Below, one piece after another: positions 2,723 through 30,034 of a stretch of 32,000 nt of DNA; position 1 is the first letter of the stretch, and each line of letters starts with the position of its first letter. Source of the DNA: an uncultured archaeon (GTDB lineage Archaea; Micrarchaeota; Micrarchaeia; Micrarchaeales; CABMGC01); the NCBI GenBank assembly GCA_963704435.1, contig OY969902.1, positions 360,001 through 392,000 on the forward strand. The letters are read 5' to 3'. Position numbers and translations under genes: made by a program. The notes under the pieces were generated by a model. That model was not told the origin of the DNA, ran no database searches, and saw only the letters and a program-made list of their open reading frames with translations.

Positions 2723-2739
2723 GCGATGTATCTGCAGCA

Positions 2740-2751
2740 AAACAATTAGAG
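2740..2751 (-). promoter_or_regulatory. Shared promoter-like motif CTCTAATTGTTT upstream of DHH paralog 1
   Basis: The identical 12-mer (minus-strand reading) occurs at the same distance (18-19 nt) upstream of both DHH paralog ATGs. Its position fits an archaeal TATA/BRE of a leaderless mRNA. Confidence 0.35.
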
Positions 2752-2770
2752 CCCATCGGTGCGCGCGGCC

Positions 2771-3814
2771 CTATGCGGGCTCAGCGACGCAGATCGGCTC
2801 GGCGAGCATGCCGAGCTCCTCCGCCTTGAGCCTTATCCTCTCGACCAGCCTGCGCCTCCACGCCTCCACTCCATGGCTCGGCGGCCTCTCGACCTGGAAC
2901 CCCGCGGCGTGAGGATGGCCTCCTCCACCCAGCTTGCGGGCCAGGCCGATGATATCCCATCCGTCGTTGCACCTGATGCTGACGTTTCCGTCGTCCTTTA
3001 CAAGTATCCCTATGTCGGCCCCGGTCCTCGCGAGTATCTCCGCGCAGGCCTCGCTCGATTCCACCGCCTTTGAGAACCCCACCGAGATCCTGCCGGAGAT
3101 CGCGTATAGGCCTTCCAGCATCGCGGCTATCCTCTCGGAGTTGAGCCTCTCGAACCTCCGCGAGGTTATGAACATGCGCTCGTCAATGAAGCGCCCCGAG
3201 GCGAGGACACCCACGACGTGCCTGAACTCCATCTGCCTTTCCTTGCGGGAGCCCAGCGTGTTGATGCTCTCCATGCAGTATCCGTACGCGCGTATCGTCT
3301 CCGCCGACCCGAGCCCCATGTCAAGGGCCCCCGACCCTCCGACTGACCATTCGCCCTCGGGCGCGACCTGGAAGTCGGCGCAGTGCACGAGCTTCCCGAG
3401 GCCAGCTTCGAAATCTCCGCAGAGACGCAGGTACCTCCTTGCCAGCTCGGTCGCGCACTCCCGGCTCTCTCCGACCACGGCGAGGTCGCACTGCCTCGCT
3501 ATCGCCTCGGCCCTGCAGCTGCAGTCGTGGTGGTCGATCCACGCGACATGCGCCCCTTTGCCCTTCATGTTCCTGACCAGCCCGGAGAACGTGTCCGCCG
3601 CGCTTCCGCCGGTAGTTATATCGAGCAGGAATAAAGTGGTGCCCTCTCCGCTGGCCCTACGGACACCCTCCATCGCGTCCGCCAGCCTGTCCGGGAGGTA
3701 GTCCACGGGGAAGACGTTATTGACGTCCGTGCCGCACTTCCTGACGACCATCGCGGCCGCGGCCGCGCCGTCTATGTCGTTGTGGGTGATGACTACTGTT
3801 CCCGCTGGCTTCAT
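2771..3814 (-). CDS. DHH/DHHA1-family phosphoesterase, paralog 2
   Basis: Motifs ITHNDIDG, WIDHHD and GGGGHPHAAGF. ATG at 3814 (MKPAGTVVITHNDIDG) is preferred over the TTG at 3838. Confidence 0.85.
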   Translation of the reverse strand: MKPAGTVVITHNDIDGAAAAAMVVRKCGTDVNNVFPVDYLPDRLADAMEGVRRASGEGTTLFLLDITTGGSAADTFSGLVRNMKGKGAHVAWIDHHDCSCRAEAIARQCDLAVVGESRECATELARRYLRLCGDFEAGLGKLVHCADFQVAPEGEWSVGGSGALDMGLGSAETIRAYGYCMESINTLGSRKERQMEFRHVVGVLASGRFIDERMFITSRRFERLNSERIAAMLEGLYAISGRISVGFSKAVESSEACAEILARTGADIGILVKDDGNVSIRCNDGWDIIGLARKLGGGGHPHAAGFQVERPPSHGVEAWRRRLVERIRLKAEELGMLAEPICVAEPA

Positions 3815-3832
3815 GCATGCTATTGCGCGGAG

Positions 3833-3844
3833 AAACAATTAGAG
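3833..3844 (-). promoter_or_regulatory. Shared promoter-like motif CTCTAATTGTTT upstream of DHH paralog 2
   Basis: Second copy of the 12-mer seen at 2740-2751, 19 nt upstream of ATG-3814. Confidence 0.35.
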
Positions 3845-3872
3845 TCTTTCGTTCCGGCAAGGAGAAATAGTA

Positions 3873-3899
3873 GGTCCGGACTTGGGGGAAGTCCGGACC
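3873..3899 (-). terminator. Perfect 11-bp stem hairpin downstream of the wHTH gene
   Basis: GGTCCGGACTT (3873-3883), loop GGGGG, AAGTCCGGACC (3889-3899). It lies between the stop of 3910..4392 and the start of the DHH gene. Terminator function is inferred only from position. Confidence 0.35.
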
Positions 3900-3909
3900 C
3901 AAAGCCTCC

Positions 3910-4392
3910 TTACGGAGGAGATACAATTAGTGTATTGGTCGCCTTGCCAGCATCATACCTGTAGTAAACCTTGTGACCCAGCTGGAGCCTGTCTAGCAGG
4001 CCCGCCTTGTGCAGCCGGTTGAGCCGCGCGCACGCGGCGTTGTTGCCCCTGTAGTTCATGAAAGCCCTGACCTCGTCCGCGCAGGCCATTCCCTTCGCCT
4101 GGACGAAGTTTATCATCTTCGCGTCCACTCCCGAGAGCGGCACTTCCCTGTTTCCCGTGACGTAGTCCTCCTTCGAGCCGAGCTCCATCGCGCTGACCTC
4201 CTCCTCGAGCGTCTTTATCCTGAGCGTTATGCCCTCGAGCAGGCGGTTCGTCCTTCCCCTCTCATCTATGAGATACTTCACCAGGGCGGATGCGTCTGCG
4301 CTGGCCGGAAGCTCCGCGTGGCTGGACTCGCTGACCCTCTTTAGCTCGTCCCTGAGCCCCAGGATCTCCCTCTCCAGCTGCACGTTGTCCAT
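3910..4392 (-). CDS. Coiled-coil + C-terminal winged-helix (MarR/ArsR-like) putative transcription regulator
   Basis: The N-terminal half is heptad-like (LEREILGLRDELKR..LEGITLRIKTLEEEV). The C-terminal part (INFVQAKGMACADEVRAFMNYRGNNAACARLNRLHKAGLLDRLQLGHKVYYRY) has a helix-turn-helix plus wing pattern. Confidence 0.55.
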   Translation of the reverse strand: MDNVQLEREILGLRDELKRVSESSHAELPASADASALVKYLIDERGRTNRLLEGITLRIKTLEEEVSAMELGSKEDYVTGNREVPLSGVDAKMINFVQAKGMACADEVRAFMNYRGNNAACARLNRLHKAGLLDRLQLGHKVYYRYDAGKATNTLIVSPP

Positions 4393-4416
4393 TGCGCCAC
4401 TCCCATCCAGACTCTT

Positions 4417-4487
4417 TCATGATGCCTTTGTAACGGCTTCACGATTCTTGCACGGTTTTTTCATGAAAGAATCATGAAGTAATCATA
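4417..4487. promoter_or_regulatory. Helically phased TCATGA repeats upstream of the wHTH gene
   Basis: The palindromic hexamer TCATGA occurs at 4417, 4461 and 4472, with a TCATA half-site at 4483. All offsets are multiples of 11 bp. The first copy is 25-30 nt upstream of ATG-4392. Confidence 0.3.
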
Positions 4488-4779
4488 GTTAGTTCCTATA
4501 AGATATTTAAACGTTGCGTTTTTCGCGCGATATTCGGCCGCGCATAGACCACTGCAGGGACCCGGTGCTGTCGCCGAAAGCGAAGGAATATCGGAAGTTC
4601 CGGTGCCCTTGGACTTCCGGTAAGCCACTGCGATGGTTCATCTCACTTATAGGGGCGCTTAGGTCAAGGGCCCTATCATTGAAACACTAGCCGAGTCAAG
4701 TTATAAAAACCCTACGTTTTTAGCAGTAGTTGTAAGATTATTAATCTGTTACTTCGAATAAACAACTAGGTGGATTTGA

Positions 4780-5031
4780 ATGGACAGTGCGACTATTGAA
4801 GAATCCAAGATGTTGGATCAATATGACGCAAATTTCAAGTGGTTCTTCAAGAATCTTAACAGTCTTAGGAAGGAATACAAGGACACGTATGTCGCAGTTA
4901 GCGGAAGGAGAGTAGTCGGAGAGGGAAAGAATATCGATAAGCTCCATCAGAAGCTTGAAGCTTCAGGAATACCTTTGGAGACTGCTTTCATAAGGTTCGT
5001 TTCCGCTGAAAATGTCCTCGCAATCCTGTGA
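4780..5031 (+). CDS. Small DUF5678-like protein (possible antitoxin-like)
   Basis: 83 aa. The pattern ..FKWFFKNLNSLRKEYKDTYVAVSGRRVVGEGKNIDKL.. resembles the archaeal DUF5678 family as I remember it. AT-rich local composition. SD-like AGGTGG lies 6 nt upstream of the ATG. Confidence 0.45.
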   Translation: MDSATIEESKMLDQYDANFKWFFKNLNSLRKEYKDTYVAVSGRRVVGEGKNIDKLHQKLEASGIPLETAFIRFVSAENVLAIL

Positions 5032-5135
5032 TTTTGTGGCAAAGTTCGCTTTGCAAGAGGCGGAGTGGGAAATGGAAACGACAAAACGGGACGAAAATGG
5101 AATAAGACACCTAAAATAGTATATAAGGTAATTAG

Positions 5136-5792
5136 ATGAACCTTGATTTCCTGGAATGGATAGAGCATGCTGGCTTCATGCTGCGCATCGGAAGCTCAGT
5201 CGCGTACATCGACCCCTTCAGACTGAACGGGAAGAAGGAGCGCGCCGACGTCGTCTTCATAACGCATCCGCACTTCGACCATCTCAGCGTAAAGGACATA
5301 GACAAGGTAGCGGGGCCGAGCACCCTCTTCGTCGCGCCAAAGGGTTCCGAAGAGCAGCTGGCCGGAAGGGACTTTCGCATCGTCGAGCCCGGGAAGAAGT
5401 ATGAGGTAGGCGGAATCGCGTTCGAGACGGTCGCGGCATACAACAACAAGCCAGAGAGGCTGAAGTTCCACCCCAAGGCGAATGGGTGGGTCGGATATGT
5501 GATAGATGCCGGTGGAAAAAGGGTCTACCACGCGGGGGACACCGATCTCACTGATGAGATGAGGAAGGTCAGCGCAGACATGGCGCTGATTCCGATGGGC
5601 GGGACGTACACGATGGGAATCGACGAGGCGGCGGAGGCAGCGAATGCGATCCGCGCGGGCAAGGTTGCGCCCATGCACTACAAGGCGCACTTCGGCAGGG
5701 ACGGCTACAAACGCGCAGAGGAGGAGTTCATGAAGAAGGCCAGGAACGGGATAATACTCAATCAGGTCCAGGAGCCGTACTTCTCAGAGTAG
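5136..5792 (+). CDS. MBL-fold metallo-hydrolase (UPF0173-like)
   Basis: HxHxDH motif (ITHPHFDHL), later HAGDT and a C-terminal His. 218 aa. Confidence 0.85.
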   Translation: MNLDFLEWIEHAGFMLRIGSSVAYIDPFRLNGKKERADVVFITHPHFDHLSVKDIDKVAGPSTLFVAPKGSEEQLAGRDFRIVEPGKKYEVGGIAFETVAAYNNKPERLKFHPKANGWVGYVIDAGGKRVYHAGDTDLTDEMRKVSADMALIPMGGTYTMGIDEAAEAANAIRAGKVAPMHYKAHFGRDGYKRAEEEFMKKARNGIILNQVQEPYFSE

Positions 5793-6567
5793 GCCCGATC
5801 CTCTTAGCCAGCGAGAGCAGTTCATCTGGGGAGAGCTTGAACACCCGCTCGTCCTTCTCTGCCAGGCGCTGAGCCAGGGCGTCCGCGGCCTCGCGCCCGC
5901 CGGCCAGGTGACGGAAGGAATCGCGCAGCGCGTTCCTCACGGTCTTCTTCTTGTGCTGCATGAGCAGGGCTATCGCCTCCCTGTCCTCATCGCTGATGGA
6001 CACCGCCTTCGGCTTCATGTAGACGAGGGCAGAGTCGACCTTCGGCACCGGCTCGAAGTTGCCCCTGCCCACATCCATGATCTTCGTGATGCTGAGGCAG
6101 AGCTGCGACATCACGCTGAGCCGGGAATAGTTGCGCGTGCCGGGCGAGGCGGTCATGCGCTCCACGAACTCCTTCTGCAGGTAGAGAACCGCCTCGAGCC
6201 TGCGGCCTATGACGAAGTCGATCACCTTGCTGGACAGGTCGTACGGCACGTTCGATATCATTATGTCGACCTGGCCGATGCCCAGCTCATCGTCGCTGGC
6301 CTTGAAGAAGTCCTTGTTCACCAGGCGCAGGTTGCCGATTCCCTCTCGGCTGAGGGCTGAGAAGAGGTTCCGGTCTATCTCCACGGCCACGACGGATTTC
6401 GCGAACCTGCACAGCTCGCGCGTGAGCATCCCGTATCCGGGACCCAGCTCGAGGACGCGCCTGCCGCGCGCATGCTCCGCCGCGGGGACCGCGATGTACC
6501 TGTTGTTGAGGAAGCACTGGCCGAGGGACTTCCGCGGCCTGAGGAATACCTGGCGTCTTTCGAACAT
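5758..6567 (-). CDS. rsmA: 16S rRNA (adenine-N6,N6)-dimethyltransferase KsgA/RsmA/Dim1
   Basis: LGQCFL N-terminus, SAM-binding LELGPGYGMLT, VVAVEIDRNL, and ISNVPYDLSS. Its 3' end overlaps the convergent MBL gene by 35 nt. Confidence 0.93.
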   Translation of the reverse strand: MFERRQVFLRPRKSLGQCFLNNRYIAVPAAEHARGRRVLELGPGYGMLTRELCRFAKSVVAVEIDRNLFSALSREGIGNLRLVNKDFFKASDDELGIGQVDIMISNVPYDLSSKVIDFVIGRRLEAVLYLQKEFVERMTASPGTRNYSRLSVMSQLCLSITKIMDVGRGNFEPVPKVDSALVYMKPKAVSISDEDREAIALLMQHKKKTVRNALRDSFRHLAGGREAADALAQRLAEKDERVFKLSPDELLSLAKRIGPTLRSTAPGPD

Positions 6568-6623
6568 ATTTTATTACCTGCGTTCCATGTTTATTGGCGC
6601 GTCAAGGCTTATAGGCTTGTAAG

Positions 6624-9600
6624 ATGCAGGAGGATGCGATGGAGAGGAGCGGGAACGGGGTCAGGGCGCAGTCCGCGCTGGAGTTCCTCATGACATACAG
6701 CTTCCTGATAACGATAATAGTCTTCGTGATGAGCGTCGTCCTGATCGTCGCGCTATCTACCGCATCCGTGGTGCCGTCGCAGTGCACCTCGTTCGGAGGG
6801 CCGTCCTGCAACTTCGTGTCGGTCTACTCGAACACAACCGTGGGATACTCGGTGGTGACCCTTTCGATATCAAACTCGCAGAGCGTCCCGATAAACGTTA
6901 CCAACGCGACAGTGACGGTCGGACCGAAGACGTACCTGGGCGCGTGCGCTCCACAATACCTCTACCCGGGGCAGAGCGCCACCTGCCTGGTAAACCTGAC
7001 AACGATGCAGCGGGCGGGGGCGCTCATTCACGGCACCTACGACATCAACGCCATATACTGCAACACAGGCATATCGTCGGTCTCCAAAGGCGGATGCGAC
7101 GTGCCAAGCCTGGCTAACGGCCAGATGGTCTCATACAGCGGCTCATTCTCGGCGGTGCCATCAATATACGAAGCGGCGATCTTCAGCGTGACCGCCGCGC
7201 AGGGACCGAAGAGCCTGCAGTTCCTTCCCTACTCTGCGATAAGCGGGAGCAACACGCTTCCGCTGAACTTCACGCCCGTGCAGAACGGGGATTGGGTAAG
7301 CAACCTGACTAGAGGGAAGATAGCATACTCCTTCGCGACCCAGGGCAGCCAATACATAGGAACCATATATCTTGGGCGCAACACCATAGCGTTCCCGCAG
7401 TCGCTGTCTGCGCTGGGAAACGGAAACATCGCATGCTCCGGCGCGCCCTACAACTCGGTGCTGTCCACGGCGTCGACGTGCATCTACCTCAATGCATCAT
7501 CCACGAACGCCAACGTGACGCTGTACACCAACAATCCAGCTGAAGTGTACTACGGACTCATGCAGCCAAACAATCCGGGGAGCGCGATAAGCTGGAAGGC
7601 CATCTTCAATGGGGGTGCGTGGACCAGCGGGGGTGCCCAACAATACGGACCTGCGCTCATCAAGCTGCAGAGGGGCACATACTGCTTCGAGGCAGTGTGG
7701 TCCAACGTGTGCGGGGGCGGACTGCAATCCCTGGCGATCACGATACCTGGATTCGGAACGATAATGAACACATCGACACTGACGACATCAAGCACAGTCA
7801 CGACCTCAGTCACGGTGACAGCGACGACGTCTACGACAACCGCGACGACCACCGCGGGCTGCACGCTCGCTGGCGTGACGGGCACGATACAGGTCGGAGG
7901 AAACCCGTATGGCGTCGCGTTCTCTCCTGATGGGACCTTTGCGTATACGACCAATTATGGCCCCGACACCCTCTCGATGATAAGCACCGCGACCAACTCT
8001 GTCGTAAACACGATCGGGGCGGGACCCGGGGTTACCAACCCTGACGGCATCGCGTTCGTGCCGGGAAGCAGCACATGGGCATACTTCGCGGACTCCTCCG
8101 GCCTCGGAACGATCTTCGTGCCTACGAACTGGGTTGTGAACCCGCTTAATTATTCGATACAGAGCCTTGATGTGCAGTTCACGCCGAGCGGCAGCGAGGC
8201 ATATGTAGTAGCCGGAACGTATGGAACCGAAGGGCGCAACGTTACTGTCATAAACACTGCAACAAGCGCGGTGGTCAACACGATCGTACTTCCGAACCAA
8301 GCAGGTCAGCCAGAGGGGGTCGCGTTCTCTCCAAACGGAAACCTAGCGTATGTTACGGATTATCTCGGAAACAAGGTTGTCGTGATAAACGTCGCGACGA
8401 ACACAGTCATAAACTCGATTTCTGTAGACGGAGAGCCAGTAGCAGTCAGCTTCGCTGACAACAACCATGCATACGTCAGTGCAGCGGGCGCCGATAAGAT
8501 TGATGTGATAAACGTCGCAACGAACGCAATGACGGCGTGCGTTATCACGGCATATATCCCTTATGGCATCACCGTTTCACCGACTGGAAATTTTGCCTTG
8601 GTCGCTACCGCTGGAAATGCCCTTATGATAAACACTGTGAGCAACACCGTGATAAATTCAATCACGACAGGGACGGGATATAATTACAGAATGGCCATTG
8701 CAGCCAACGGCAAATATGCATATCTAGGTTCTTCGGGTGGTGCAATCGGATATATCAATATCCCAGCGAACACGTTCACCACCTTGATCGCTACCGACGA
8801 AGTATCTGACATGGTGATAGACCCGACCAGCTCCACATATGTGTATGCGGCGCAGTATTATGGAGGCGGAATGATCTACAGGATTGCCACTGCTACTAAC
8901 GCCATCACCAGTTGGGGTTCGTACAAGGAGTACGGACTACACCTGGCAATCCCGTCAACCGGCGGCGTGGCGTATGAGACAGGCTACTCCTCCGCCCGCC
9001 TGAGTATCATTAATCTCGGATCGATGTCTGTAGTGCCCAGCTCAGTCGGAGCCACACCGAATGCGATTGCAGTATCGTCTTCTGGCATTTCATACGTTGT
9101 AAATGGAGGCAGCGGCACTGTCACTGTGGTCGGCCCCCCTAGTGCAGGCTATCCTGTACTAGCGACCGTGCCCGTCGGCACCGACCCATGGGGCGCGGCG
9201 GTCTCGCCCAACGGCCAATATGTCTGGGTCACCAACTACGGATCTGGCACGGTCAGCGTCATCAACACCGCGACCTACTCGGTCGTGGCCACCATCATAG
9301 TCGGCTCCAATCCTACGGGCCTCGCGCTGTCGCCCAACAGCGCCTACCTCTACGTCGCGAACTCCGGAAGCAACAGCGTGAGCGTCATCACGACTTCGAA
9401 CAATCAAGTGGTTGCTACCATACTTGTCGGGTCCAGCCCGTACGGCATCGCCGTTGCACCGACAGGCGATTATATATACGTCGCAAACCACGGGAGCGGC
9501 ACGGTCCTAGTGATCAACGCGGCCACGCTCAGCCTCGTCAACACGGTGGTCACTCCTGGAGGGACGCCGCATGCCATAGCCGCATCGCCGACGGGCAGCT

Positions 9601-9668
9601 ATCTGTACGTGACTGACGACTCGCCGAGTAGTAAAGTCTTTGTGGTCGGTGAGGGGACCTGCACCTGA
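6624..9668 (+). CDS. Type IV pilin-like (class III signal peptide) protein fused to YVTN-type beta-propeller repeats, 1014 aa
   Basis: N-terminus ..GVRA/QSALEFLMTYSFLITIIVFVMSVVLIVAL has a prepilin-peptidase-type site plus a hydrophobic helix. It is followed by a sequon-rich domain of about 340 aa, a Thr/Ser linker (about 7770-7856), and about 600 aa of ~40-residue repeats (GxxPxGVAFSPDGxxAYVTNxxxxTVSVINTATNxVV). The alternative start ATG-6639 fits a TATA-like box at 6606-6615. Confidence 0.85.
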   Translation: MQEDAMERSGNGVRAQSALEFLMTYSFLITIIVFVMSVVLIVALSTASVVPSQCTSFGGPSCNFVSVYSNTTVGYSVVTLSISNSQSVPINVTNATVTVGPKTYLGACAPQYLYPGQSATCLVNLTTMQRAGALIHGTYDINAIYCNTGISSVSKGGCDVPSLANGQMVSYSGSFSAVPSIYEAAIFSVTAAQGPKSLQFLPYSAISGSNTLPLNFTPVQNGDWVSNLTRGKIAYSFATQGSQYIGTIYLGRNTIAFPQSLSALGNGNIACSGAPYNSVLSTASTCIYLNASSTNANVTLYTNNPAEVYYGLMQPNNPGSAISWKAIFNGGAWTSGGAQQYGPALIKLQRGTYCFEAVWSNVCGGGLQSLAITIPGFGTIMNTSTLTTSSTVTTSVTVTATTSTTTATTTAGCTLAGVTGTIQVGGNPYGVAFSPDGTFAYTTNYGPDTLSMISTATNSVVNTIGAGPGVTNPDGIAFVPGSSTWAYFADSSGLGTIFVPTNWVVNPLNYSIQSLDVQFTPSGSEAYVVAGTYGTEGRNVTVINTATSAVVNTIVLPNQAGQPEGVAFSPNGNLAYVTDYLGNKVVVINVATNTVINSISVDGEPVAVSFADNNHAYVSAAGADKIDVINVATNAMTACVITAYIPYGITVSPTGNFALVATAGNALMINTVSNTVINSITTGTGYNYRMAIAANGKYAYLGSSGGAIGYINIPANTFTTLIATDEVSDMVIDPTSSTYVYAAQYYGGGMIYRIATATNAITSWGSYKEYGLHLAIPSTGGVAYETGYSSARLSIINLGSMSVVPSSVGATPNAIAVSSSGISYVVNGGSGTVTVVGPPSAGYPVLATVPVGTDPWGAAVSPNGQYVWVTNYGSGTVSVINTATYSVVATIIVGSNPTGLALSPNSAYLYVANSGSNSVSVITTSNNQVVATILVGSSPYGIAVAPTGDYIYVANHGSGTVLVINAATLSLVNTVVTPGGTPHAIAASPTGSYLYVTDDSPSSKVFVVGEGTCT
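7857..8135. repeat. Near-identical block shared by the two propeller genes (copy 1)
   Basis: Aligns to 10381-10659 (offset 2524). By eye I count 9 mismatches in 279 bp. Confidence 0.8.
9120..9666. repeat. 547-bp perfect direct repeat, copy 1 (3' end of the first propeller gene)
   Basis: Line-by-line comparison shows identity to 11659-12205 (offset 2539). The ORF track also reports identical antisense ORFs at this offset. Identity breaks just upstream of 9120 (mismatches at 9113 and 9119) and at the stop codon (TGA versus TAA). Confidence 0.95.
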
Positions 9669-9744
9669 CTTTATCAGCTTGGATCATTTGCTGGCAAAAA
9701 CCTTTCCCCTTTTTAATCTTTGCTGCGAATCGTAATCGGTAATC

Positions 9745-12207
9745 ATGAAGCTGCAGTCCGCCATGGAGTATCTGCTTACCTATGGCTGGATGATCCTGAT
9801 AGTCACGATAGTCATCGCCGTGTTCATGCTGCTCGGAGTGTTCAATCCGAGCGGAATCGCAGGCCAGCAGTGCCTGCTGCCTGCAGGGCTATCCTGCTCG
9901 ATCTCGGACCTTACCCCTAATGGCGTGCTCCTCGTAAACATACTCCAGACCACGCCTACGCAGATAAACGTAAGCGCGGTAGGATGCGACACCCAGTCCC
10001 TGATACCCAGCGGAATGTCGACTTACAGGACCCTTCTCAGCAGCACGAGCTCCCCGTTCATCGTGCAGTGCTACGCGGGCAACAGCATCACCCCCGACAA
10101 TGCGCTGAGCATAGGCACCCTATTCTCCGGATACCTGATAGTGAACTACACAGAAGTCTACACAGGATTCCCCCACACAGCAACAGGAACACTCCTCGCC
10201 AGAGTCACATCGGTGAACCTCGCGACCACGATATCTTCGACAACGACTGCCACCACGACCAGTTCCACCATCTCCACAACCACAACAGGCACCTCCACTT
10301 CAACGACGTCCACGTCGACGACGGCCACGACCACATCATCCACTTCGACGACGTCAACGACCGCGAGCACCACCACAGTGGGCTGCACGCTCGCGGGCGT
10401 GACGGGCACGATACAGGTCGGAGGAAACCCGTATGGCGTCGCGTTCTCGCCGGACGGGACCTTTGCGTATACGACCAACTATGGCCCCGACACCCTCTCG
10501 ATGATAAGCACCGCGACCAACTCTGTCGTAAACACGATCGGGGCGGGACCTGGAGTGATCAACCCTGACGGCATCGCGTTCGTGCCGGGAAGCAGCACAT
10601 GGGCATACTTCGCGGACTCCTCCGGCCTCGGAACGATCTTCGTGCCTACGAACTGGGTTAATAATCCGATTAACTATTCAATACAGAGCTATGACGTGCA
10701 ATTCACGCCGAGCGGCAGCGAGGCGTACGTGGTGAGCGGCGTGGGGGGGGTTGAGAAATACAACGTCACGGTCATAAACACAGCGACAAGCGCAGTGGTC
10801 AACACGATCGTCCTTCCGAACCAAGGGACAAGCGAGCCACTCGGTGTTGGATTCTCTCCAAATGGAAATCTAGCTTACGTTACAGATTACAACAGCAACA
10901 AGGTTGATGTGATAAACGTCGCGACGAATACGGTCATAAACACGATTTCCGTAGACCCGGGGCCGAATGGAGTCGGCTTCGCTGACAACAACCACGCGTA
11001 CGTCACCACAGATTACAACGTTAAGCTTGACGTGATAAACGTCGCGACGAACACCGTCACAGCGAACAACATCGTCGCATCATATGCATCTTATGCCATC
11101 TCGGTCTCACCGGTTGGCAACCTTGCCTTGGTTTCTACTGCTGGGAATATCCTTGTGATAAACACTGTGAGCAACACCGTGATAAACTCAATCACGACAG
11201 GGGTGGGCTACACCGACAGGATAGCCATAGCGGCTAATGGCAAATACGCGTACATAGGTGACGCTCAGGAGCACATCGGATATATCAATATTCCAGCGAA
11301 CACGATGACCGCATTCGGTGCGGGCGGGGAAATAGAGGGAATGGCAACAGACCCGACCAGTTCAACTTACGCGTACGGGTCAATTTATTGCTGTGGAAGC
11401 TACGGGTTCATAAGAATCGCCACATCCAATAACGCCATCACCTATGCGACGACCATCCCGAACAAAAACTACTACTGGGAAATGGCAATCCCCTCAACCG
11501 GTGGAGTTGCGTATGAGACGGGCTACAGCTCCGCACACCTGAATATCATTAATCTCGCATCAATGTCTGCAGTGCCTAGTTCGGTCGGAATGACTCCGAA
11601 CGCGATTGCGGTCACGCCCGGCGGCATCGCGTATGTGGTGAACGGAGGCAGTGGCACGGTCACTGTGGTCGGCCCCCCTAGTGCAGGCTATCCTGTACTA
11701 GCGACCGTGCCCGTCGGCACCGACCCATGGGGCGCGGCGGTCTCGCCCAACGGCCAATATGTCTGGGTCACCAACTACGGATCTGGCACGGTCAGCGTCA
11801 TCAACACCGCGACCTACTCGGTCGTGGCCACCATCATAGTCGGCTCCAATCCTACGGGCCTCGCGCTGTCGCCCAACAGCGCCTACCTCTACGTCGCGAA
11901 CTCCGGAAGCAACAGCGTGAGCGTCATCACGACTTCGAACAATCAAGTGGTTGCTACCATACTTGTCGGGTCCAGCCCGTACGGCATCGCCGTTGCACCG
12001 ACAGGCGATTATATATACGTCGCAAACCACGGGAGCGGCACGGTCCTAGTGATCAACGCGGCCACGCTCAGCCTCGTCAACACGGTGGTCACTCCTGGAG
12101 GGACGCCGCATGCCATAGCCGCATCGCCGACGGGCAGCTATCTGTACGTGACTGACGACTCGCCGAGTAGTAAAGTCTTTGTGGTCGGTGAGGGGACCTG
12201 CACCTAA
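9745..12207 (+). CDS. Type IV pilin-like protein fused to YVTN-type beta-propeller repeats, 820 aa (paralog of 6624..9668)
   Basis: N-terminus MKL/QSAMEYLLTYGWMILIVTIVIAVFML is the classic archaeal pilin QSAxEYLxTYGW motif. It has a shorter globular domain, a longer Thr/Ser linker (about 10222-10380), then the same propeller. TATA-like TTTTAATC at 9711-9718. Confidence 0.85.
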   Translation: MKLQSAMEYLLTYGWMILIVTIVIAVFMLLGVFNPSGIAGQQCLLPAGLSCSISDLTPNGVLLVNILQTTPTQINVSAVGCDTQSLIPSGMSTYRTLLSSTSSPFIVQCYAGNSITPDNALSIGTLFSGYLIVNYTEVYTGFPHTATGTLLARVTSVNLATTISSTTTATTTSSTISTTTTGTSTSTTSTSTTATTTSSTSTTSTTASTTTVGCTLAGVTGTIQVGGNPYGVAFSPDGTFAYTTNYGPDTLSMISTATNSVVNTIGAGPGVINPDGIAFVPGSSTWAYFADSSGLGTIFVPTNWVNNPINYSIQSYDVQFTPSGSEAYVVSGVGGVEKYNVTVINTATSAVVNTIVLPNQGTSEPLGVGFSPNGNLAYVTDYNSNKVDVINVATNTVINTISVDPGPNGVGFADNNHAYVTTDYNVKLDVINVATNTVTANNIVASYASYAISVSPVGNLALVSTAGNILVINTVSNTVINSITTGVGYTDRIAIAANGKYAYIGDAQEHIGYINIPANTMTAFGAGGEIEGMATDPTSSTYAYGSIYCCGSYGFIRIATSNNAITYATTIPNKNYYWEMAIPSTGGVAYETGYSSAHLNIINLASMSAVPSSVGMTPNAIAVTPGGIAYVVNGGSGTVTVVGPPSAGYPVLATVPVGTDPWGAAVSPNGQYVWVTNYGSGTVSVINTATYSVVATIIVGSNPTGLALSPNSAYLYVANSGSNSVSVITTSNNQVVATILVGSSPYGIAVAPTGDYIYVANHGSGTVLVINAATLSLVNTVVTPGGTPHAIAASPTGSYLYVTDDSPSSKVFVVGEGTCT
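10381..10659. repeat. Near-identical block shared by the two propeller genes (copy 2)
   Basis: Counterpart of 7857-8135. Confidence 0.8.
11659..12205. repeat. 547-bp perfect direct repeat, copy 2 (3' end of the second propeller gene)
   Basis: Counterpart of 9120-9666. Confidence 0.95.
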
Positions 12208-12321: not shown

Positions 12322-13374
12322 TTATCTCCCAGGATTCTTCCTCACGAACCGCTTGTCCACGGCGGCTATGTCCTTGAAGCTGTGCAGCTGGATTCCCGCG
12401 TCGTCCTCGGAGTTGAACACCCTTATCCCCACGCGCTGGGCGTATGCCGCGTCAAGGACCTCCTTGACGCCCTCCTCGTTCAGCACCGAGTCGTTCACCA
12501 GCACCGCACCCGCCTGGTAGGTCTCCAGCGCCTCCCTTACCTTGTCCATGCCATAGAACGAGCGGCCCATAGCCAGCCCAGCGAGGAAAGCGTTGAGCGC
12601 ATCGAACTCGCCCTTCACCTTCTCGTTCTCGAGCAGCCTCGACACCGCATCGCTCTGCACCGCCTCGCGCACGCCCGACCTTTCCGCGTCGCTCGCTGCC
12701 GCGTACACCACCCTCTTCTCAAGCTTCAGGCCCTTCGTCTCGACGTGCTTCTTGAAATCGTCCTTAGTGAAGCCCGGCCCGGCTATGACTATCAGGTCGA
12801 CCTTCATCCCCGCGACTTTCTTCGCGATCTCGTCGAAGTACGCCTGCCTCGCCTTCCCGTACTCCGCCTCCTTCATCTTCTTGCTCAGCCCGCTGTAGAT
12901 CTCGGCCGCGGTCTCGATGCCCGTCCCCTTCACGTACGCGAACGTCGCCTTCTCGTCGTCCAATGCCACCGCTCCCAGCCTCGGCTTCCTTGAGTCGAGG
13001 ACCGCCTGCCTTATCATTCCGAGCGTGTACTCCTTCCACTCCGCCTTCCTCACGGTCAGGGCGTCTCCTTCTCCCACGCTCAGCGTGTGGTAGCTGCCCA
13101 TCCTCACGAACTCCTCCGGCCTGCCGCTAAGTATCTTCCCGGCCAGCCTGAGCATTCCCGAGTTCCTGTCTATCTCCACCTTCTCCACGCTCAGCTCGAT
13201 GACCACCTCCTTCTGCTCTCCCACGTCGCCCTCGCTGGGCCTGAAGCGCCTGGTGCTGCTGGCGGTCGCGGCGTCGCCCTTCCCTATCACCCTTGCGAGC
13301 AGGTACAGGTCGTCGAACGATGTCGGTACCAGCTTCAGCTCGTTAGTGGAATGGTTGAACCTTATTACCTTCAT
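12322..13374 (-). CDS. pelA: Pelota (Dom34 homolog, mRNA surveillance / ribosome rescue)
   Basis: MKVIRFNHSTNELKLVPTSFDDLYLLARVI.., 350 aa, eRF1-like three-domain layout. The start is taken at ATG-13374. The 189-codon upstream extension in the ORF track overlaps the DedA gene and looks non-coding (R/E/H/D-rich). Confidence 0.92.
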   Translation of the reverse strand: MKVIRFNHSTNELKLVPTSFDDLYLLARVIGKGDAATASSTRRFRPSEGDVGEQKEVVIELSVEKVEIDRNSGMLRLAGKILSGRPEEFVRMGSYHTLSVGEGDALTVRKAEWKEYTLGMIRQAVLDSRKPRLGAVALDDEKATFAYVKGTGIETAAEIYSGLSKKMKEAEYGKARQAYFDEIAKKVAGMKVDLIVIAGPGFTKDDFKKHVETKGLKLEKRVVYAAASDAERSGVREAVQSDAVSRLLENEKVKGEFDALNAFLAGLAMGRSFYGMDKVREALETYQAGAVLVNDSVLNEEGVKEVLDAAYAQRVGIRVFNSEDDAGIQLHSFKDIAAVDKRFVRKNPGR

Positions 13375-13431
13375 GCTCTCAATGGTCTTCTGGCTAATCA
13401 AAGATAAAAACATATGCAGGGAAATAAACCC

Positions 13432-14058
13432 ATGCACCTCTTCATGCTGCAGAGCCTGCTCAGCTTCACGTACGCGTCCGTAAGCGCCTTTATCGGCACC
13501 TACGGCTACATCGCGATCTTCGCGCTCACGGCGGCCGAGGCGGCGCTCCCGATCCCGAGCGAAGTCATCCTTCCCCTTGTAGGCTACTTCGGGGCCATTG
13601 GCGAGATAAGCGTGTTCGTGGGTTTCGCAGTCGCGATCCTCGGGAGCCTGGTCGGAATGGTCGCCGACTACTACGTGGCCTACTTCCTCGAGAAGGACGT
13701 AGTGTACAAGCACCTCCGCCTCTTCCACATGAAGCGCAGCAGTGTGGAGGCGTTCGACGCGTGGTTCGCAAAGAACGGCAAGCTCACCGTATTCGTATCC
13801 AGGCTCATCCCGCTGGTCAGGGCGCTGATAAACTTCCCTGCCGGCTTCGCGAAGATGAGGGTCAGGGAATTCCTGCTCTACTCGTTGGCGGGCACCATCA
13901 TATGGTCCGCGCTGCTTATGGGCTTCGGCTACTATGCGCACGGTCTGCTCGTAGCGAACGTGTACTACCTCGTGATAGCGCTGGTGCTATTCTTCGTCGT
14001 CCTGTATGCGCTGTACCGGTACATGATGGGAAAGATAAGGAAGCAGATAAAGAGCTGA
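13432..14058 (+). CDS. DedA/VTT-domain family membrane protein
   Basis: YGYIAIFALTAAEAALPIPSEVILPLVGYF and ..FVSRLIPLVRALINFPAGFAKM.. are typical DedA segments, with multiple TM helices. Start is ATG-13432 or ATG-13414. An AT-rich element at 13400-13411 could act as a bidirectional TATA box with Pelota. Confidence 0.85.
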   Translation: MHLFMLQSLLSFTYASVSAFIGTYGYIAIFALTAAEAALPIPSEVILPLVGYFGAIGEISVFVGFAVAILGSLVGMVADYYVAYFLEKDVVYKHLRLFHMKRSSVEAFDAWFAKNGKLTVFVSRLIPLVRALINFPAGFAKMRVREFLLYSLAGTIIWSALLMGFGYYAHGLLVANVYYLVIALVLFFVVLYALYRYMMGKIRKQIKS

Positions 14059-14234
14059 GAGAAAGCTTCATTTCCGCCCTTGAAAACAAGTTCAATATTT
14101 TGAACAGGGCCATATCTTTTTGAACGAGGGCTAGGGAGGCCATAGTCTAGGACATGCGGCGTAAGATAAGTGCAGTCGAAAAACTTATATATTAGAATTA
14201 CTATAACATTATAGTAAATAATATAGTGATATAA

Positions 14235-15254
14235 GTGAATAAGGAAGAGACAAAGATATTGAGCTATCTCTCAGACAACTTAGGTGATGGGGGAAACATA
14301 CGGGAAATGTCAGAGGGCATAAATAAAAGATATGGCCCTGCTTATTATTCTAACATCTACAACACCACGAATAAGCTTAAAAAAATGGGCATCGTAGACA
14401 TAGCGCAGGAAGGAAAGAACAGGCGGATAACGCTCGACGCGGAAAATCCCTTCTCAACGTATTACATGTCTGAGATCGAGAGCCACAAGGCTAGCCAAAC
14501 AACCCTCTCTAAGGAAATGCTGAGCAGCATATTGGATCTTGCTGAAAGATTCAATATATTTTCCATTTGCACTTTGGAAACTGAAAAACATCTGAAAATA
14601 AACAGGATAGAGATGCTAATCCTTGCCCAGAATCACGACGATGATGGAAAACTGATAAAATCTCTTTTACGAACGGAATCCGAGCAGGGAATAAAAATAG
14701 ACCCCTGCATATTTGCCATTGACGAATTCATAAAAATGATGCAGACCGATGAACTAAACCCGATAAAGGACATTATCCCTGACAAATGCGTATTATACAA
14801 CAGCGAAGGTTTCTGGAGCCTGATAAACCATCACAAGATAGGAATCAAATACAAAAAATCCAGAAAATTCTCCCTATATCTGACAGCGAGCGAACTAGCG
14901 TATAATTACAACAGGCAAGGCTATCAATTGAATGAGCAAATCAGGCCTTCCGAGAAGATATCCTTAGAAACCACAATATTCTCAATGAGCATCAAAAACG
15001 AAACCAGAATAAAATACGGAGCCATAATCCTGCTGTACAAAAACATTGAAAGAATAAATTGGGCTTGTTTATTCTATATGTACAAAAGATATGATGAGCT
15101 AAACAGATTCAAAAGCATCCTGCTTTCATTGGCAGACTTAAAGAATACGACAAACAACGCGGATATCAACCGCTACATCGAAATCATTACAGACAAACCA
15201 GATACGAAATACGACGCTAAAATAATTAAAAAATACATGGAGGTGTATGGTTAA
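14235..15254 (+). CDS. wHTH-domain protein of an AT-rich accessory gene pair (possible AbiEi-like regulator/antitoxin)
   Basis: 339 aa. The N-terminus TKILSYLSDNLGDGGNIREMSEGINKRYGPAYYSNIYNTTNKLKKMGIVDIAQEGKNRRITL is winged-helix-like. GTG start. Its stop TAA directly abuts the next ATG (TAAATG). Confidence 0.45.
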   Translation: MNKEETKILSYLSDNLGDGGNIREMSEGINKRYGPAYYSNIYNTTNKLKKMGIVDIAQEGKNRRITLDAENPFSTYYMSEIESHKASQTTLSKEMLSSILDLAERFNIFSICTLETEKHLKINRIEMLILAQNHDDDGKLIKSLLRTESEQGIKIDPCIFAIDEFIKMMQTDELNPIKDIIPDKCVLYNSEGFWSLINHHKIGIKYKKSRKFSLYLTASELAYNYNRQGYQLNEQIRPSEKISLETTIFSMSIKNETRIKYGAIILLYKNIERINWACLFYMYKRYDELNRFKSILLSLADLKNTTNNADINRYIEIITDKPDTKYDAKIIKKYMEVYG

Positions 15255-15770
15255 ATGGCAGGAATTTCAAAAAGAGACCTCCTACAGTTTCTTGAGTCCT
15301 TTGATCAGGAACTGACCAGAAAAATCCTGCTTGTTGCAGTTGGAGGAACCGCGATGACCTTGCTAGGCATCAAGGCGACAACGAAAGACATAGATTTCAA
15401 CATACCCTTGGAGGAGGATTTCAATGAATTCGCGCACATCAGAGACAAAATAAGGCCGGGCGTAAAAATTGACTGTTGGAGTTCTAATACCATATTCAGC
15501 GAGATTTTGCCGGGGGATTACATAAAAATTGCGATTGATTATCCTTCTGGCCTTCGAAAAATCGAAATTAAACTGTTGAACCCTATAGATATCGCATGTT
15601 CAAAAATCAGCAGGTTTAACGAGGCGGATCGGGAAGATATAGTGGACTGCATTGAAAAAATCGGCATAACAAGAGTACAGATGAGAAAGAGGGCGCAGAG
15701 ATATTCGCAGGTCGGAAGTGAACGGGCATTCAATGAAAATCTCGAATATATATTAGAGAACCTGTTCTAG
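15255..15770 (+). CDS. Minimal nucleotidyltransferase-fold protein (DUF6036/AbiEii/MNT-like)
   Basis: Pol-beta superfamily signature GG-x13-DxD (VAVGGTAMTLLGIKATTKDIDF). The later ..DIACSKISRFNEADREDIVDCI resembles the family's C-terminal helix. 171 aa, translationally coupled to the upstream gene. Confidence 0.6.
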   Translation: MAGISKRDLLQFLESFDQELTRKILLVAVGGTAMTLLGIKATTKDIDFNIPLEEDFNEFAHIRDKIRPGVKIDCWSSNTIFSEILPGDYIKIAIDYPSGLRKIEIKLLNPIDIACSKISRFNEADREDIVDCIEKIGITRVQMRKRAQRYSQVGSERAFNENLEYILENLF

Positions 15771-15858
15771 TTAATCCTATTCTGCAAGGGATAAAAATAG
15801 CGCCGAAGCCCGAGAGGCCTAGGGCATAAGCCAGCGGAAAAGTAAGCTTGGACTTAAA

Positions 15859-16209
15859 CTAGGGGGCCCGTGGTTTCGCCCGTGTGGACTTGGAAGGGGT
15901 CGGACTTAGGGGAGCCCTGCTGTCGAGTATGTAGTTCTTCACGACCTTGACCACCTGGTCTATGGCCCGCTTGATGTCCGCCTCGGTCTTTGCGCCCGTG
16001 CAGATTATCTTTCCGTTCTTGAACAGAAGCAGCGCTACCTTCGGCTCCTTTATCTTGTATATCGCTCCAGGGAACTGCTCCGGCTCGTAGTCGACGTCAG
16101 GCGAGGCCTTCGCTATCTCGTACAGGTCGAGCTCCACGCCCAGGTCTGCGCTGGCTACTATGTTCTCTATTTTGAACTGCGGATGAAGCGTGACCTTTTT
16201 CTTTGCCAT
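15859..16209 (-). CDS. Single-repeat TBP-domain protein (half-size TATA-binding-protein homolog)
   Basis: KIENIVASADLGVELDLYEIAKASPDVDYEPEQFPGAIYKIKEPKVALLLFKNGKIICTGAKTEADIKRAIDQVVKVV matches one TBP repeat almost motif for motif. The ORF is only 116 aa and ends in a Pro/basic tail. No second repeat is found in any frame nearby. Confidence 0.8.
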   Translation of the reverse strand: MAKKKVTLHPQFKIENIVASADLGVELDLYEIAKASPDVDYEPEQFPGAIYKIKEPKVALLLFKNGKIICTGAKTEADIKRAIDQVVKVVKNYILDSRAPLSPTPSKSTRAKPRAP

Positions 16210-16745: not shown

Positions 16746-17117
16746 GTGAACAACGTGAAACGATTAACGAAGGAAGAGATAGTTGAGATTAACAAGAGCA
16801 TAGGAGAGGGAGGGGTGGAGAAAAATAGCAATCTTCCTGGCATAATCTACGCGTTGGATGAGACTGCTAACGTGGAGGATTATGCGACGCTGCTCTTGAC
16901 TGAGCTAATAAATCTTCATCCTTTCTTGCAGGGCAACAAGAGGACCGCGTTTTATTCGCTTGTGATGTTCCTCCGGAAGAACGGATACGCGCTAAAGAAG
17001 GAGCATAAATATAACGACAAAATAGACAGGATACTGATAAGTGTGATACGAGGAAAATCAAAGAACCATACGAGGCAGTTGCTAAAAAAGATGATATATT
17101 ATGGAAAACCTAAATGA
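16746..17117 (+). CDS. Doc-family (Fic-fold) toxin
   Basis: Doc-type motif HPFLQGNKRTAF (HxFxxGNKR). 123 aa. AT-rich context. Confidence 0.8.
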   Translation: MNNVKRLTKEEIVEINKSIGEGGVEKNSNLPGIIYALDETANVEDYATLLLTELINLHPFLQGNKRTAFYSLVMFLRKNGYALKKEHKYNDKIDRILISVIRGKSKNHTRQLLKKMIYYGKPK

Positions 17118-20491: not shown

Positions 20492-20520
20492 GCCCCGAGC
20501 GCCTCGTTTTACAAAAAGGT

Positions 20521-20528
20521 ATTTAAAT
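20521..20528 (+). promoter_or_regulatory. TATA-like box upstream of the pilin-like gene
   Basis: ATTTAAAT is 33-40 nt upstream of ATG-20561 but only 12-19 nt upstream of ATG-20540. This argues for the downstream start. Confidence 0.4.
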
Positions 20529-20560
20529 GATGCTAGCATATGCTATACCAGGCCGGTTTT

Positions 20561-20929: not shown

Positions 20930-21009
20930 GACGGCGCTGCCCGCCTTAAACTGGAACCCCTAGCCTGCGGTTCGCCAAGTGTTAAATTGCTTTGGCGTCA
21001 TGAGTAACC

Positions 21010-22920: not shown

Positions 22921-22969
22921 CGGCTCCTTTAAGAGTATTTTTTAATGTTGCGTGCATTGTATAGAAAAC

Positions 22970-23710: not shown

Positions 23711-23750
23711 ACGCTATTTATAGCTTGTCTTAGCAAAGTAAGAAGAGATC

Positions 23751-25103: not shown

Positions 25104-25111
25104 GTGCTAGC

Positions 25112-27817: not shown

Positions 27818-27830
27818 AAGAGGTTAGGAC

Positions 27831-30031: not shown

Positions 30032-30034
30032 GAG

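Follow-up and report, generated by a model that had tools for sequence, protein, structure and literature searches.

Modular pilins have been described in bacteria, where PilB and PilC of Streptococcus sanguinis consist of a pilin module with a grafted vWA or lectin domain (Raynaud et al. 2021, PMC8179133). In these proteins an N-terminal pilin module serves as carrier and is followed by a linker and a cargo foreign to pilus biology, one kind of carrier is combined with many cargoes, and display at the tip of the filament or on its side has been proposed. Several other systems share single features with such an arrangement. The PilY1/PilC tip adhesins of type IVa pili are large modular beta-propeller proteins used for adhesion, and the extracellular S-layer protein of the archaeon Methanosarcina mazei (PDB 1l0q) contains a propeller of the YVTN repeat family. 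The Epd and Flp pilins are small, cargo-free proteins of 50-170 aa. In the archaeal bindosome, large non-pilin cargo is joined to a class III N-terminus and served by pilus-like assembly genes (PMC3387779). As to the signals themselves, archaeal class III signals have Lys or Arg at position -2 (PMC3387779), the leaders of pilins are described as always ending in Gly or Ala (PMC10191384), and the leaders of EppA-type pilins comprise 5-13 aa and end in Gly, with Gln at +1 and Glu at +5 (PMC3875500).

Members of the DPANN archaea, the Micrarchaeota among them, spend their lives attached to other archaea, and little is understood of the means by which the host is recognised and held. A co-culture of a cultivated Micrarchaeon with its host exists (PMC8975820), flaI and flaJ have been reported in the cultivated Micrarchaeon ARM-1 (PMC8784108), and for DPANN genomes pilus gene clusters have been reported in which 'no pilins were annotated' (PMC9563170). 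Here, we describe two adjacent genes on a 32,000-nucleotide stretch of DNA from an uncultured, tiny symbiotic archaeon of the Micrarchaeota (the window), ORF A (6624-9668) and ORF B (9745-12207), both on the forward strand and both located where a sequence-only reading had placed two giant pilin-like proteins. Our main reading, to which we assign a probability of roughly 0.55, is that A and B are paralogous Micrarchaeota (DPANN) cell-surface proteins that are built like modular type IV pilins and displayed on a filament. They are most likely surface adhesins and archaeal counterparts of the bacterial modular pilins, probably acting as sticky modules shown on or beside pili. If true, the modular pilin principle would reach beyond bacteria into the archaea.

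ORF A encodes 1014 aa arranged as a pilin-like module, a second beta domain, a Thr/Ser linker and a 14-blade YVTN module. Its true start is probably the second ATG, at 6639, since GGAGG lies 5 nt upstream of this codon and an independent gene call in locus L090 chose the same ATG, the counterpart of ORF A there starting 72 nt past KsgA. A GTG start that would give ORF A a 3-aa leader was ruled out, as the codon in question is GTC. The N-terminus (MQEDAMERSGNGVRA|QSALEFLMTYSF...; 6624-6755, forward strand) comprises a charged leader (..GNGVRA), the motif Q16-S-A-L-E20-F-L and a hydrophobic helix (aa 16-44), of which residues 18-44 are helical in the AlphaFold2 (AF2) model. Cleavage of the class III type is predicted between A15 and Q16 (6668|6669), and the flanking residues, Arg at -2, Ala at -1, Gln at +1 and Glu at +5, all agree with the archaeal class III rule (PMC3387779, PMC3875500). 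The pilin-like beta-sandwich module (aa 45 to ~175; 6756-7148, forward strand) has conserved Cys pairs at 54/62, 108/121 and 146/158 and AF2 strands between residues 53 and 145, and it is also found, with other cargo, in the relatives P0007-P0010.

The sequence-only reading had proposed pilin-type domains with paired Cys of about 340 aa in A and about 125 aa in B. The paired Cys residues are present in both proteins, but the 340-aa stretch of A was wrongly taken for one pilin domain: it divides into a module of ~175 aa that, by profile alignment, is homologous to the N-terminal module of B (hhalign probability 99.6%, E 6e-24, 136 columns) and a second beta-rich domain (aa ~176-378; 7149-7757, forward strand) with Cys 271/286 and 354/363. 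The closest PDB structures to this second domain in a Foldseek search were Cea1A (5a3l) and KpFlo2 (6hos), with probability 0.99-1.0 and TM 0.38-0.40 on a model of moderate quality (pLDDT 62). It gave no match to the Pfam PA14 models (PF07691, PF10528), and we tentatively regard it, from the model, as a PA14/Flo-adhesin-like, lectin-like domain; it also occurs in the stand-alone orthologues P0001-P0006. The Thr/Ser-rich linker of A (aa 379-411; 7758-7856, forward strand) is disordered in the AF2 model (pLDDT <35), and homology between A and B starts ~35 nt before its end. The 14 YVTN repeats (aa 412-1014; 7857-9665, forward strand) are predicted to form a tandem pair of 7-bladed propellers, with Cys413 and Cys1013 at the ends.

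ORF B encodes 820 aa in the order pilin-like module, Thr/Ser linker and 14-blade YVTN module. The N-terminus (MKL|QSAMEYLLTYGW...; 9745-9840, forward strand) has a 3-aa leader, M-K-L, followed by Q4-S-A-M-E8-Y-L and a hydrophobic helix (aa 4-32; AF2 helix 2-29, pLDDT 70-86), and the leader cannot be longer because an in-frame stop lies four codons upstream of the start. The globular beta module (aa 33-156; 9841-10212, forward strand) has Cys 43/51 and 81/109, conserved N-x-T/S sequons and seven AF2 strands with pLDDT 77-93. It is followed by a Thr/Ser-rich linker (aa 157-212; 10213-10380, forward strand), likewise disordered (AF2 pLDDT 26-36), so that the Thr/Ser linkers proposed at the outset are borne out in both proteins, and by 14 YVTN repeats (aa 213-820; 10381-12204, forward strand), again predicted to be a tandem pair of 7-bladed propellers, with Cys214 and Cys819 at its ends.

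In both ORFs, a short charged leader precedes the motif Q-S-A-[LM]-E-[FY]-L and ~25 hydrophobic residues, and no further motif of this kind occurs in the window in any of the six frames. Of the class III signal and pilin helix first suggested for both proteins, the motif and the helix stand for both, each having a hydrophobic stretch after the predicted cleavage site and Glu at +5, and A follows the class III rule; in B, the Lys at -2 agrees with the rule but the Leu at -1 does not, the canonical residues being Gly or Ala. This Leu is a common residue in the carrier family at large (n=178), where position -1 is Leu in 41%, Ala in 28%, Ser in 12% and Gly in 10%, position -2 is Lys or Arg in 90%, +5 is Glu in 98% and +6 is Tyr or Phe in 100%, and the uncharged run past +5 has a median length of 36 residues. 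Within the family, conservation is highest in the N-terminal helix (0.80 as against 0.53 for the globular part). A helix that is the best-conserved part is typical of pilins and unlike Sec signal peptides. The carrier consists of a charged leader, an invariant Gln(+1)/Glu(+5)-Tyr/Phe(+6), a helix of ~25 residues and a small Cys-bridged beta-sandwich.

A short leader followed by Gln at +1 and Glu at +5 is also seen in the EppA-dependent (DUF361/Epd) pilins of Methanococcus maripaludis (PMC3875500), and the pairing of Glu with Tyr at +5/+6 is reminiscent of the Flp motif of the Flp/Tad pilins. In contrast to EppA-type leaders, which end in Gly, those of the carrier family end in Leu, Ala, Ser or Gly (Ala in A, Leu in B), and the Epd model PF04021 has no match in A or B. 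A search for archaeal pilin N-terminal models, suggested by the sequence-only reading, returned no match from Pfam or NCBIfam: with the N-terminal modules of A, B and 28 family members and a threshold of E<=10, no pilin or class III model was hit, including PF04021, PF07790 and TIGR02537. Run against the sequences in the PDB, the profile of the carrier, the carrier itself and the helix gave noise only and no solved pilin, and a Foldseek search of the PDB with the model of ORF A had no pilin among its top matches.

Residues 1-156 of ORF B match stand-alone Micrarchaeota proteins of ~155 aa (P0011-P0035) from end to end, and by this alignment the carrier of B is a complete copy of a conserved stand-alone protein family. 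The architecture originally proposed, in which a linker joins a pilin-type module with a class-III-like N-terminus to a double YVTN propeller, is supported, and this match makes it more precise. The full-length match, the conservation of the helix and the tandem paralogues of locus L079 described below agree with what is known of pilins and with the modular design of the bacterial proteins. At E<=1e-3 the carrier profile collects 8444 cluster representatives, of which 158 reach E<=1e-30, and its matches in genomes are nearly all from Micrarchaeota. Among the best 150 carrier matches, 52 exceed 250 aa, the longest having 2499 aa, and these 52 longer relatives contain 21 Pfam cargo families; DUF2341, InlB-B-repeat, LamG, lectin-like, Kelch, propeller, PKD, ice-binding-like, Hint and GH16/39/44 domains are all found on the same carrier. 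Cargo exchange is evident at one orthologous locus: where the surroundings of ORF A (MBL, KsgA, gene) are syntenic, the relative P0003 is a carrier without cargo and P0002 is a carrier with a Flg_new_2 cargo. On these sequence comparisons, the carrier family is large and unannotated, with one carrier bearing many different cargoes. Its members are candidates for two roles, the ~155-aa proteins as filament subunits and A, B and the modular relatives as adhesive or enzymatic heads.

The likeness of A and B to the modular pilins surveyed by Raynaud et al., for whom IPR012902 was the formal criterion, is one of architecture. Unlike the bacterial proteins, A and B are archaeal (DPANN), and their carrier is a lineage-specific beta-sandwich without a Pfam pilin signature, in which position +1 is Gln and position -1 is often Leu. 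Their linkers are long Thr/Ser tracts (33-56 aa) instead of short loops, and their cargo is a double propeller of 600 aa.

For this cargo, about 14-15 YVTN repeats forming two 7-bladed propellers had been anticipated, and a repeat HMM built from both proteins finds exactly 14 units in each. The recommended YVTN search confirmed the repeat type, TIGR02276 scoring 182.1 bits in A and 196.7 bits in B, well over the cutoff of 27.85. In the AF2 model of ORF B, residues 229-815 form ~50 strands in four-strand blades, with propeller pLDDT values of up to 98, and the best PDB matches by Foldseek are the tandem double propellers 2ymu, Aip1 and Utp21 together with the archaeal YVTN propeller 1l0q (24% identity, E 1e-20). 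Each propeller module has one Cys among its first residues and one among its last. The shared repeat family and fold and the extracellular archaeal setting link A and B to 1l0q, which differs from them in that a single 7-blade propeller is followed by PKD domains in a Sec-type S-layer protein, whereas A and B have 14 tandem blades C-terminal to the carrier. PilY1 is a non-pilin held by minor pilins and has a propeller of another family, whereas in A and B the propeller is covalently fused to the carrier; membership of A and B in the PilY1 group was rejected, as their propeller is of the YVTN type and the PilY1-type model PF05567 has no match in either protein. The bindosome proteins have the signal and helix in common with A and B but lack a pilin globular module, and they carry an ABC substrate-binding domain as cargo; in A and B, Pfam and NCBIfam revealed no solute-binding domain. 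Charged residues are very few in A and B and Thr, Ser and Asn are abundant, a composition that we read as typical for exported proteins of acidophiles.

As we envisage it, the Sec system would insert each protein so that the N-terminal helix sits in the membrane, and an A24-type prepilin peptidase would then cut off the leader on the cytoplasmic side. The small stand-alone paralogues would build a type IV (Epd/Tad-like) filament, or a short pseudopilus, into which the carrier could dock. On the long, probably glycosylated linker, the bulky propellers would be suspended from the filament at its tip or side and may there bind a ligand, for which the host archaeon's surface or matrix is the most plausible candidate. 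The Leu at -1 raises the question of prepilin peptidase specificity. A far-reaching version of this scheme, which we regard as speculative and rather doubtful, holds that the Micrarchaeota may have made an Epd/Tad-like type IV filament into a general display platform, on which a lineage-specific pilin module would bear dozens of interchangeable cargoes (double propellers, lectins, Kelch domains, glycoside hydrolases) on long glycosylated Thr/Ser tethers along the filament, the cargoes being swapped through recombination in the linker even at orthologous loci; a prepilin peptidase of altered specificity would cut at a non-canonical Lys/Arg-Leu|Gln site, A and B would be heads for host attachment, and the small paralogues would be the DPANN pilins that have so far escaped annotation.

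The main reading has to be weighed against display without a filament, in which the class-III-like helix would anchor the protein in the membrane or in a short bindosome-like assembly, the linker would span the S-layer space and the propellers would be cell-bound receptors or adhesins. We consider this a possible, though not a probable, account. Pilus machinery is absent from the window, as had already been noted: no T2SSE ATPase, T2SSF platform protein or A24 peptidase was found among its ORFs with Pfam. Scans of the window for tRNAs and Rfam families were both empty. Family genes are scattered, the four members examined having only housekeeping genes as neighbours, and the genomic linkage of the carrier family to pilus ATPases is weak. 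A pattern scan for T2SSE ATPases in 89 loci had one match, the Micrarchaeota ATPase of L045; with this protein as query, a family member lay within a 10-kb radius in 2 of 21 metagenome loci, and because of this low count the L045 ATPase was dropped as evidence of linkage. Filament-free display is further consistent with the Leu at -1, which may mean that no cleavage takes place, with the class III signals on the sugar-binding proteins of Sulfolobus (PMC3387779) as precedent, and with the glycoside hydrolase cargo of relatives, which needs display alone and suggests general surface display instead of pili specifically. Against these points stand the very strong sequence conservation of the helix, the make-up of the carrier, which comprises an entire conserved globular module of the same design as the stand-alone proteins and is more than a signal-anchor, and locus L079, where ten small paralogues in tandem adjoin a T2SSE ATPase at a distance of 1.5 kb (truncated; spotted by eye).

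Removal of the hydrophobic segment as an ordinary Sec signal by SPase I, for example after ..GIAG39 in B, would leave soluble, secreted or S-layer-associated propellers; the small-residue site I-A-G behind the hydrophobic stretch of B, the YVTN propeller of the archaeal S-layer protein 1l0q and the silence of the curated class III models would fit. We nevertheless hold it to be very unlikely, since the putative signal would be the best-conserved part of thousands of proteins, the invariant Gln and Glu and the hydrophobic run of ~25 residues are unlike Sec signals, and conservation is poor behind the helix, which leaves no conserved AxA-type site. The described S-layer protein of Micrarchaeum harzensis has S-layer domains and an architecture unlike that of A and B (10.1101/2021.04.28.441871), no S-layer model of NCBIfam or Pfam (among them TIGR01564 and TIGR01567) matches A or B, and identity of A and B with the S-layer protein was discarded, the Micrarchaeota protein being of a different family. 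A further rival leaves the display as it is and concerns function only: the propellers could be catalytic (lactonase-like) or nucleic-acid-binding (YncE-like) and scavenge nutrients or DNA. Uptake of DNA or nutrients via pili has been suggested for DPANN archaea (PMC9563170), the carrier bears enzymes in relatives, and the propellers of A and B resemble those of YncE, lactonase, PQQ-associated and hydrazine-synthase proteins at scores under the thresholds. This resemblance is of the generic repeat kind and stays far short of the family cutoffs (for example, 90 bits as against 400 for the YncE model), no catalytic signature was identified in the propellers, and the extra domain of ORF A is most like sugar-binding adhesin domains, all of which makes a scavenging function unlikely in comparison with the adhesin function of the main reading.

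The propeller modules of A and B, which are 83% identical, are the product of an old duplication, and their divergence is uneven. Between the two proteins, dS amounts to 0.77 in blades 3-10, 0.09-0.17 in blades 1-2 and 0 in blades 11-14, and dN/dS in the diverged blades is 0.29. The comparison of A and B shows a propeller cargo that was grafted via the linker onto two different carriers, with both copies maintained by purifying selection. The last 547 nt of the two modules, covering blades 11-14 (9120-9666 in A and 11659-12205 in B, both forward strand), are identical, and this identity indicates gene conversion. An assembly artefact was excluded as its source, as the same pair with the same C-termini is present in the independent assemblies L004 and L005. 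An exact look-up found no entry for ORF B, for which breaks of assemblies within repeat-bearing genes or faulty calls of such genes are the probable reason; the tandem pair A-B recurs in L004, an assembly that is itself frameshifted.

Two adjacent ORFs, A (6624-9668, + strand, 1014 aa) and B (9745-12207, + strand, 820 aa), lie exactly where the sequence-only reading had placed them, on the same strand and 76 nt apart. They are best read, with a probability of about 0.55, as modular pilin-like surface proteins, in which a carrier module and a Thr/Ser linker are followed by a YVTN propeller cargo. The pair is surrounded by archaeal housekeeping genes (eIF2-gamma, two DHH phosphoesterases, an MBL hydrolase, KsgA, Pelota, L21e and RpoF), and its homologues are found nearly exclusively in Micrarchaeota MAGs, which identifies the source as a DPANN archaeon. 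The true start of A is probably the second ATG at 6639, as it is preceded by GGAGG and used by an independent gene call, while a longer leader for B is impossible because of a stop codon four codons upstream.

Residues 1-156 of B align end to end with stand-alone proteins of 150-170 aa (homologues P0011-P0035), two Cys pairs and two N-x-T/S sequons being conserved between them, and the AF2 model of B combines a helix at residues 2-29 with a beta domain of seven strands (42-154; pLDDT 77-93). The carrier profile matched 8444 representatives of 50%-identity clusters at E<=1e-3 (158 at E<=1e-30), as well as at least 568 stretches in one-genome-per-species data, where the 80 kept loci were nearly all from Micrarchaeota. 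Since the first ~175 residues of A are homologous to the B carrier (hhalign probability 99.6%, E 6e-24), what had been taken for a single 340-aa pilin domain in A is in fact two domains, the carrier and a second beta domain (residues ~176-378, + strand) that is also present in the stand-alone orthologues P0001-P0006. The most similar folds to the moderate model of this second domain (pLDDT 62) are the PA14/Flo-type Cea1A and KpFlo2 (probability ~1, TM ~0.4), suggesting a sugar-binding, adhesin-like domain, an assignment that is tentative because Pfam PA14 did not match it.

Both proteins begin with the class-III-type motif and hydrophobic helix proposed earlier, with cleavage predicted between MQEDAMERSGNGVRA and QSALEFLMTYSF in A and between MKL and QSAMEYLLTYGW in B, and in all six frames of the window no further ORF shows the motif. 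Across the carrier family (n=178), Gln at +1 is invariant, K/R occupies -2 in 90%, Glu +5 in 98% and Tyr/Phe +6 in 100% of the members, and the most frequent leader length is three residues. Archaeal class III signals have a basic -2 residue, with -1 and +1 being decisive (PMC3387779), and judging from sequence the N-termini of A, B and the family match them, save at position -1 in B and much of the family. B has Leu there, like 41% of the family (Ala 28%, Ser 12%, Gly 10%), whereas pilin leaders are described as ending without exception in Gly or Ala (PMC10191384). The EppA-type Methanococcus pilins, with Gln likewise at +1 and Glu at +5 (PMC3875500), come closest, and the Glu-Tyr pair is reminiscent of Flp pilins. 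In sequence searches, neither the N-terminal modules nor 28 family members matched curated pilin or class III models, and the carrier matched no solved pilin.

The Thr/Ser linkers, 33 aa in A and 56 aa in B and disordered in AF2, lead in both proteins into a module of ~600 aa. Two seven-bladed propellers had been proposed from ~14-15 repeats, and this was borne out by the TIGR02276 search (182 and 197 bits), by a repeat HMM derived from A and B that found exactly 14 units in each, and by AF2, whose blades have four strands each and reach a pLDDT of 98, a single blade (B 268-313) being poorly modelled. The top Foldseek matches are the tandem 2x7-blade 2ymu, Aip1 and Utp21 and the archaeal YVTN propeller 1l0q. 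Cys residues at both module ends (A 413/1013, B 214/819) could conceivably lock ring closure.

Of the 150 best carrier-profile matches, 52 exceed 250 aa, the longest having 2499 aa, and their cargo includes DUF2341 (11 members), propellers (2), Flg_new_2, LamG, Kelch, PKD, ice-binding-like and Gly-rich domains; as some also bear GH16, GH39 or GH44, the carrier displays enzymes too. Hint, Big_1 or Cys-rich modules occur on other relatives, and very large family members include P0187 (2499 aa), P0295 (1446 aa) and P0202 (1075 aa). The same design, with cargo grafted onto a pilin-like module, characterises the bacterial "modular pilins", whose functional modules are displayed by the filament (PMC8179133, a survey of bacteria only); no archaeal counterpart was found in the literature searched. 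We predict that A, B and their relatives represent an archaeal form of modular pilins that is specific to this lineage and departs from the canonical cleavage motif, which would make them candidate pilins and adhesins for DPANN-host attachment.

The propeller modules of A and B share 83% protein identity in a mosaic pattern: blades 11-14 are identical in DNA over 547 nt (9120-9666 = 11659-12205), blades 1-2 have dS of 0.09-0.17, and blades 3-10 have dS of 0.77 and dN/dS of 0.29. The duplication is old, purifying selection acts on both copies, and the module ends have recently undergone gene conversion; homology between A and B starts inside the Thr/Ser linker. The tandem pair recurs in an independent assembly (L004, 2623-6406), with frameshifts in both genes, and the A module is also present in a further independent assembly (L005). 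B's exact protein is not on record, probably because public assemblies of the same population frameshift or break the locus; short-read contigs stop inside ORF A (L090, 9892-11334), presumably owing to the 547-nt identical tract. At the syntenic locus (MBL, KsgA on the minus strand, then the gene), the same N-terminal protein is without cargo in P0003 (368 aa; L002/L003, 10001-11107), bears Flg_new_2 (InlB-B-repeat) cargo in P0002 (660 aa; L114, 6001-7983) and carries the double propeller in the window genome. As the three genomes differ at one syntenic position, cargo has been exchanged at an orthologous locus.

Pfam searches revealed no pilus assembly machinery (T2SSE ATPase, T2SSF platform or A24 peptidase) among the ORFs of the window, in agreement with the sequence-only reading. 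Elsewhere, stand-alone carrier genes reside in conserved housekeeping contexts (PolB ... gene ... RNR, RNase HII, MCM), and other family genes are scattered. In Ca. Burarchaeum (L079), ten tandem small carrier paralogues (2643-7949; 168-200 aa), all with N-termini of the type ..K(K/R)GQAAMEY/FL.TYGWA and thus the canonical Gly at -1, lie 1.5 kb from a T2SSE ATPase gene (PF00437, E 1.5e-30) that runs off the contig end, with a TruD gene in between. Another T2SSE ATPase, 2.6 kb from a carrier-family gene (L045), was rejected as linkage evidence, a family member being nearby in just 2 of the 21 fetched loci of that ATPase. A cultivated Micrarchaeon has been reported to encode flaI and flaJ (PMC8784108), and Tad-like clusters without annotated pilins are described from other DPANN archaea (PMC9563170).

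If A and B are modular pilin-like proteins, the carrier would enter the membrane via Sec, probably be processed at K/R-x-Q directly before the Gln, and dock, alongside small paralogues, into a type IV filament or pseudopilus. From the filament tip or side, the long, probably glycosylated linker would suspend the 65-kDa double propeller, in A along with the lectin-like domain, and the suspended domains would bind a ligand, most plausibly the host archaeon surface or the biofilm matrix.

The mean top-residue frequency in the family is 0.80 in the N-terminal helix, its best conserved part, versus 0.53 in the globular part. Pilin helices form the filament core, and helix-over-globular conservation is the pilin pattern and the opposite of cleaved Sec signals; it speaks against A and B having a plain Sec signal, which we consider very improbable. 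The main rival, doubtful yet to be taken seriously, is that the helix just anchors the proteins, as in a bindosome or signal-anchor arrangement, and it gains from the Leu at -1, the scattered family genes and the relatives with enzyme cargo. The former two, together with the weak ATPase linkage (2/21), also temper the earlier proposal of a pilus adhesin, of which the carrier-linker-propeller architecture is supported. A catalytic or DNA-binding role of the propeller is rather unlikely; the similarity to YncE, lactonase, PQQ-associated and hydrazine-synthase propellers is generic, with scores well short of the cutoffs.

A separate + strand gene cluster (19532-31144) starts with a MoxR AAA ATPase (19532-20491, + strand) and a 129-aa ORF (20540-20929, + strand) that has two TM helices and an N-terminus resembling a signal, and whose sole Pfam matches, T4SS_pilin (E 0.12) and TrbC/VirB2 (E 0.47), are sub-threshold and nearly full-length. 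These are followed by a polytopic membrane protein of 636 aa and a DUF4013-like protein. Last come six polytopic membrane proteins (23751-31144, + strand), paralogues of 18-25% identity that have in common the motif GLILRAxPxTRxxGGxFIAMAIGFYLIYP as well as a C-terminal KLI and that have no match in Pfam. The cluster may encode a membrane apparatus of the VirB2/VirB6 type (Ced/Ted- or conjugation-like).

The two DHH/DHHA1 phosphoesterases are tandem paralogues (1736-2740 and 2771-3838, both minus strand). The mechanical Pelota ORF (12322-13941, minus strand, 539 aa) has a spurious N-terminal extension overlapping an opposite-strand VTT/DedA gene; its eRF1 domains start at residue 189 (MKVIRFNHS..), and the gene probably spans ~12322-13377. 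Two Fic/DOC-domain ORFs (16746-17117, + strand; 18449-19390, minus strand) lie on either side of the DUF655 and RpoF genes. Finally, the stretch 14001-16000, with a GC of 0.40-0.43 versus 0.55-0.60 elsewhere, contains an ORF of 339 aa with no family assignment (14235-15254) next to a DUF6036 nucleotidyltransferase (15255-15770), and may be an acquired island.
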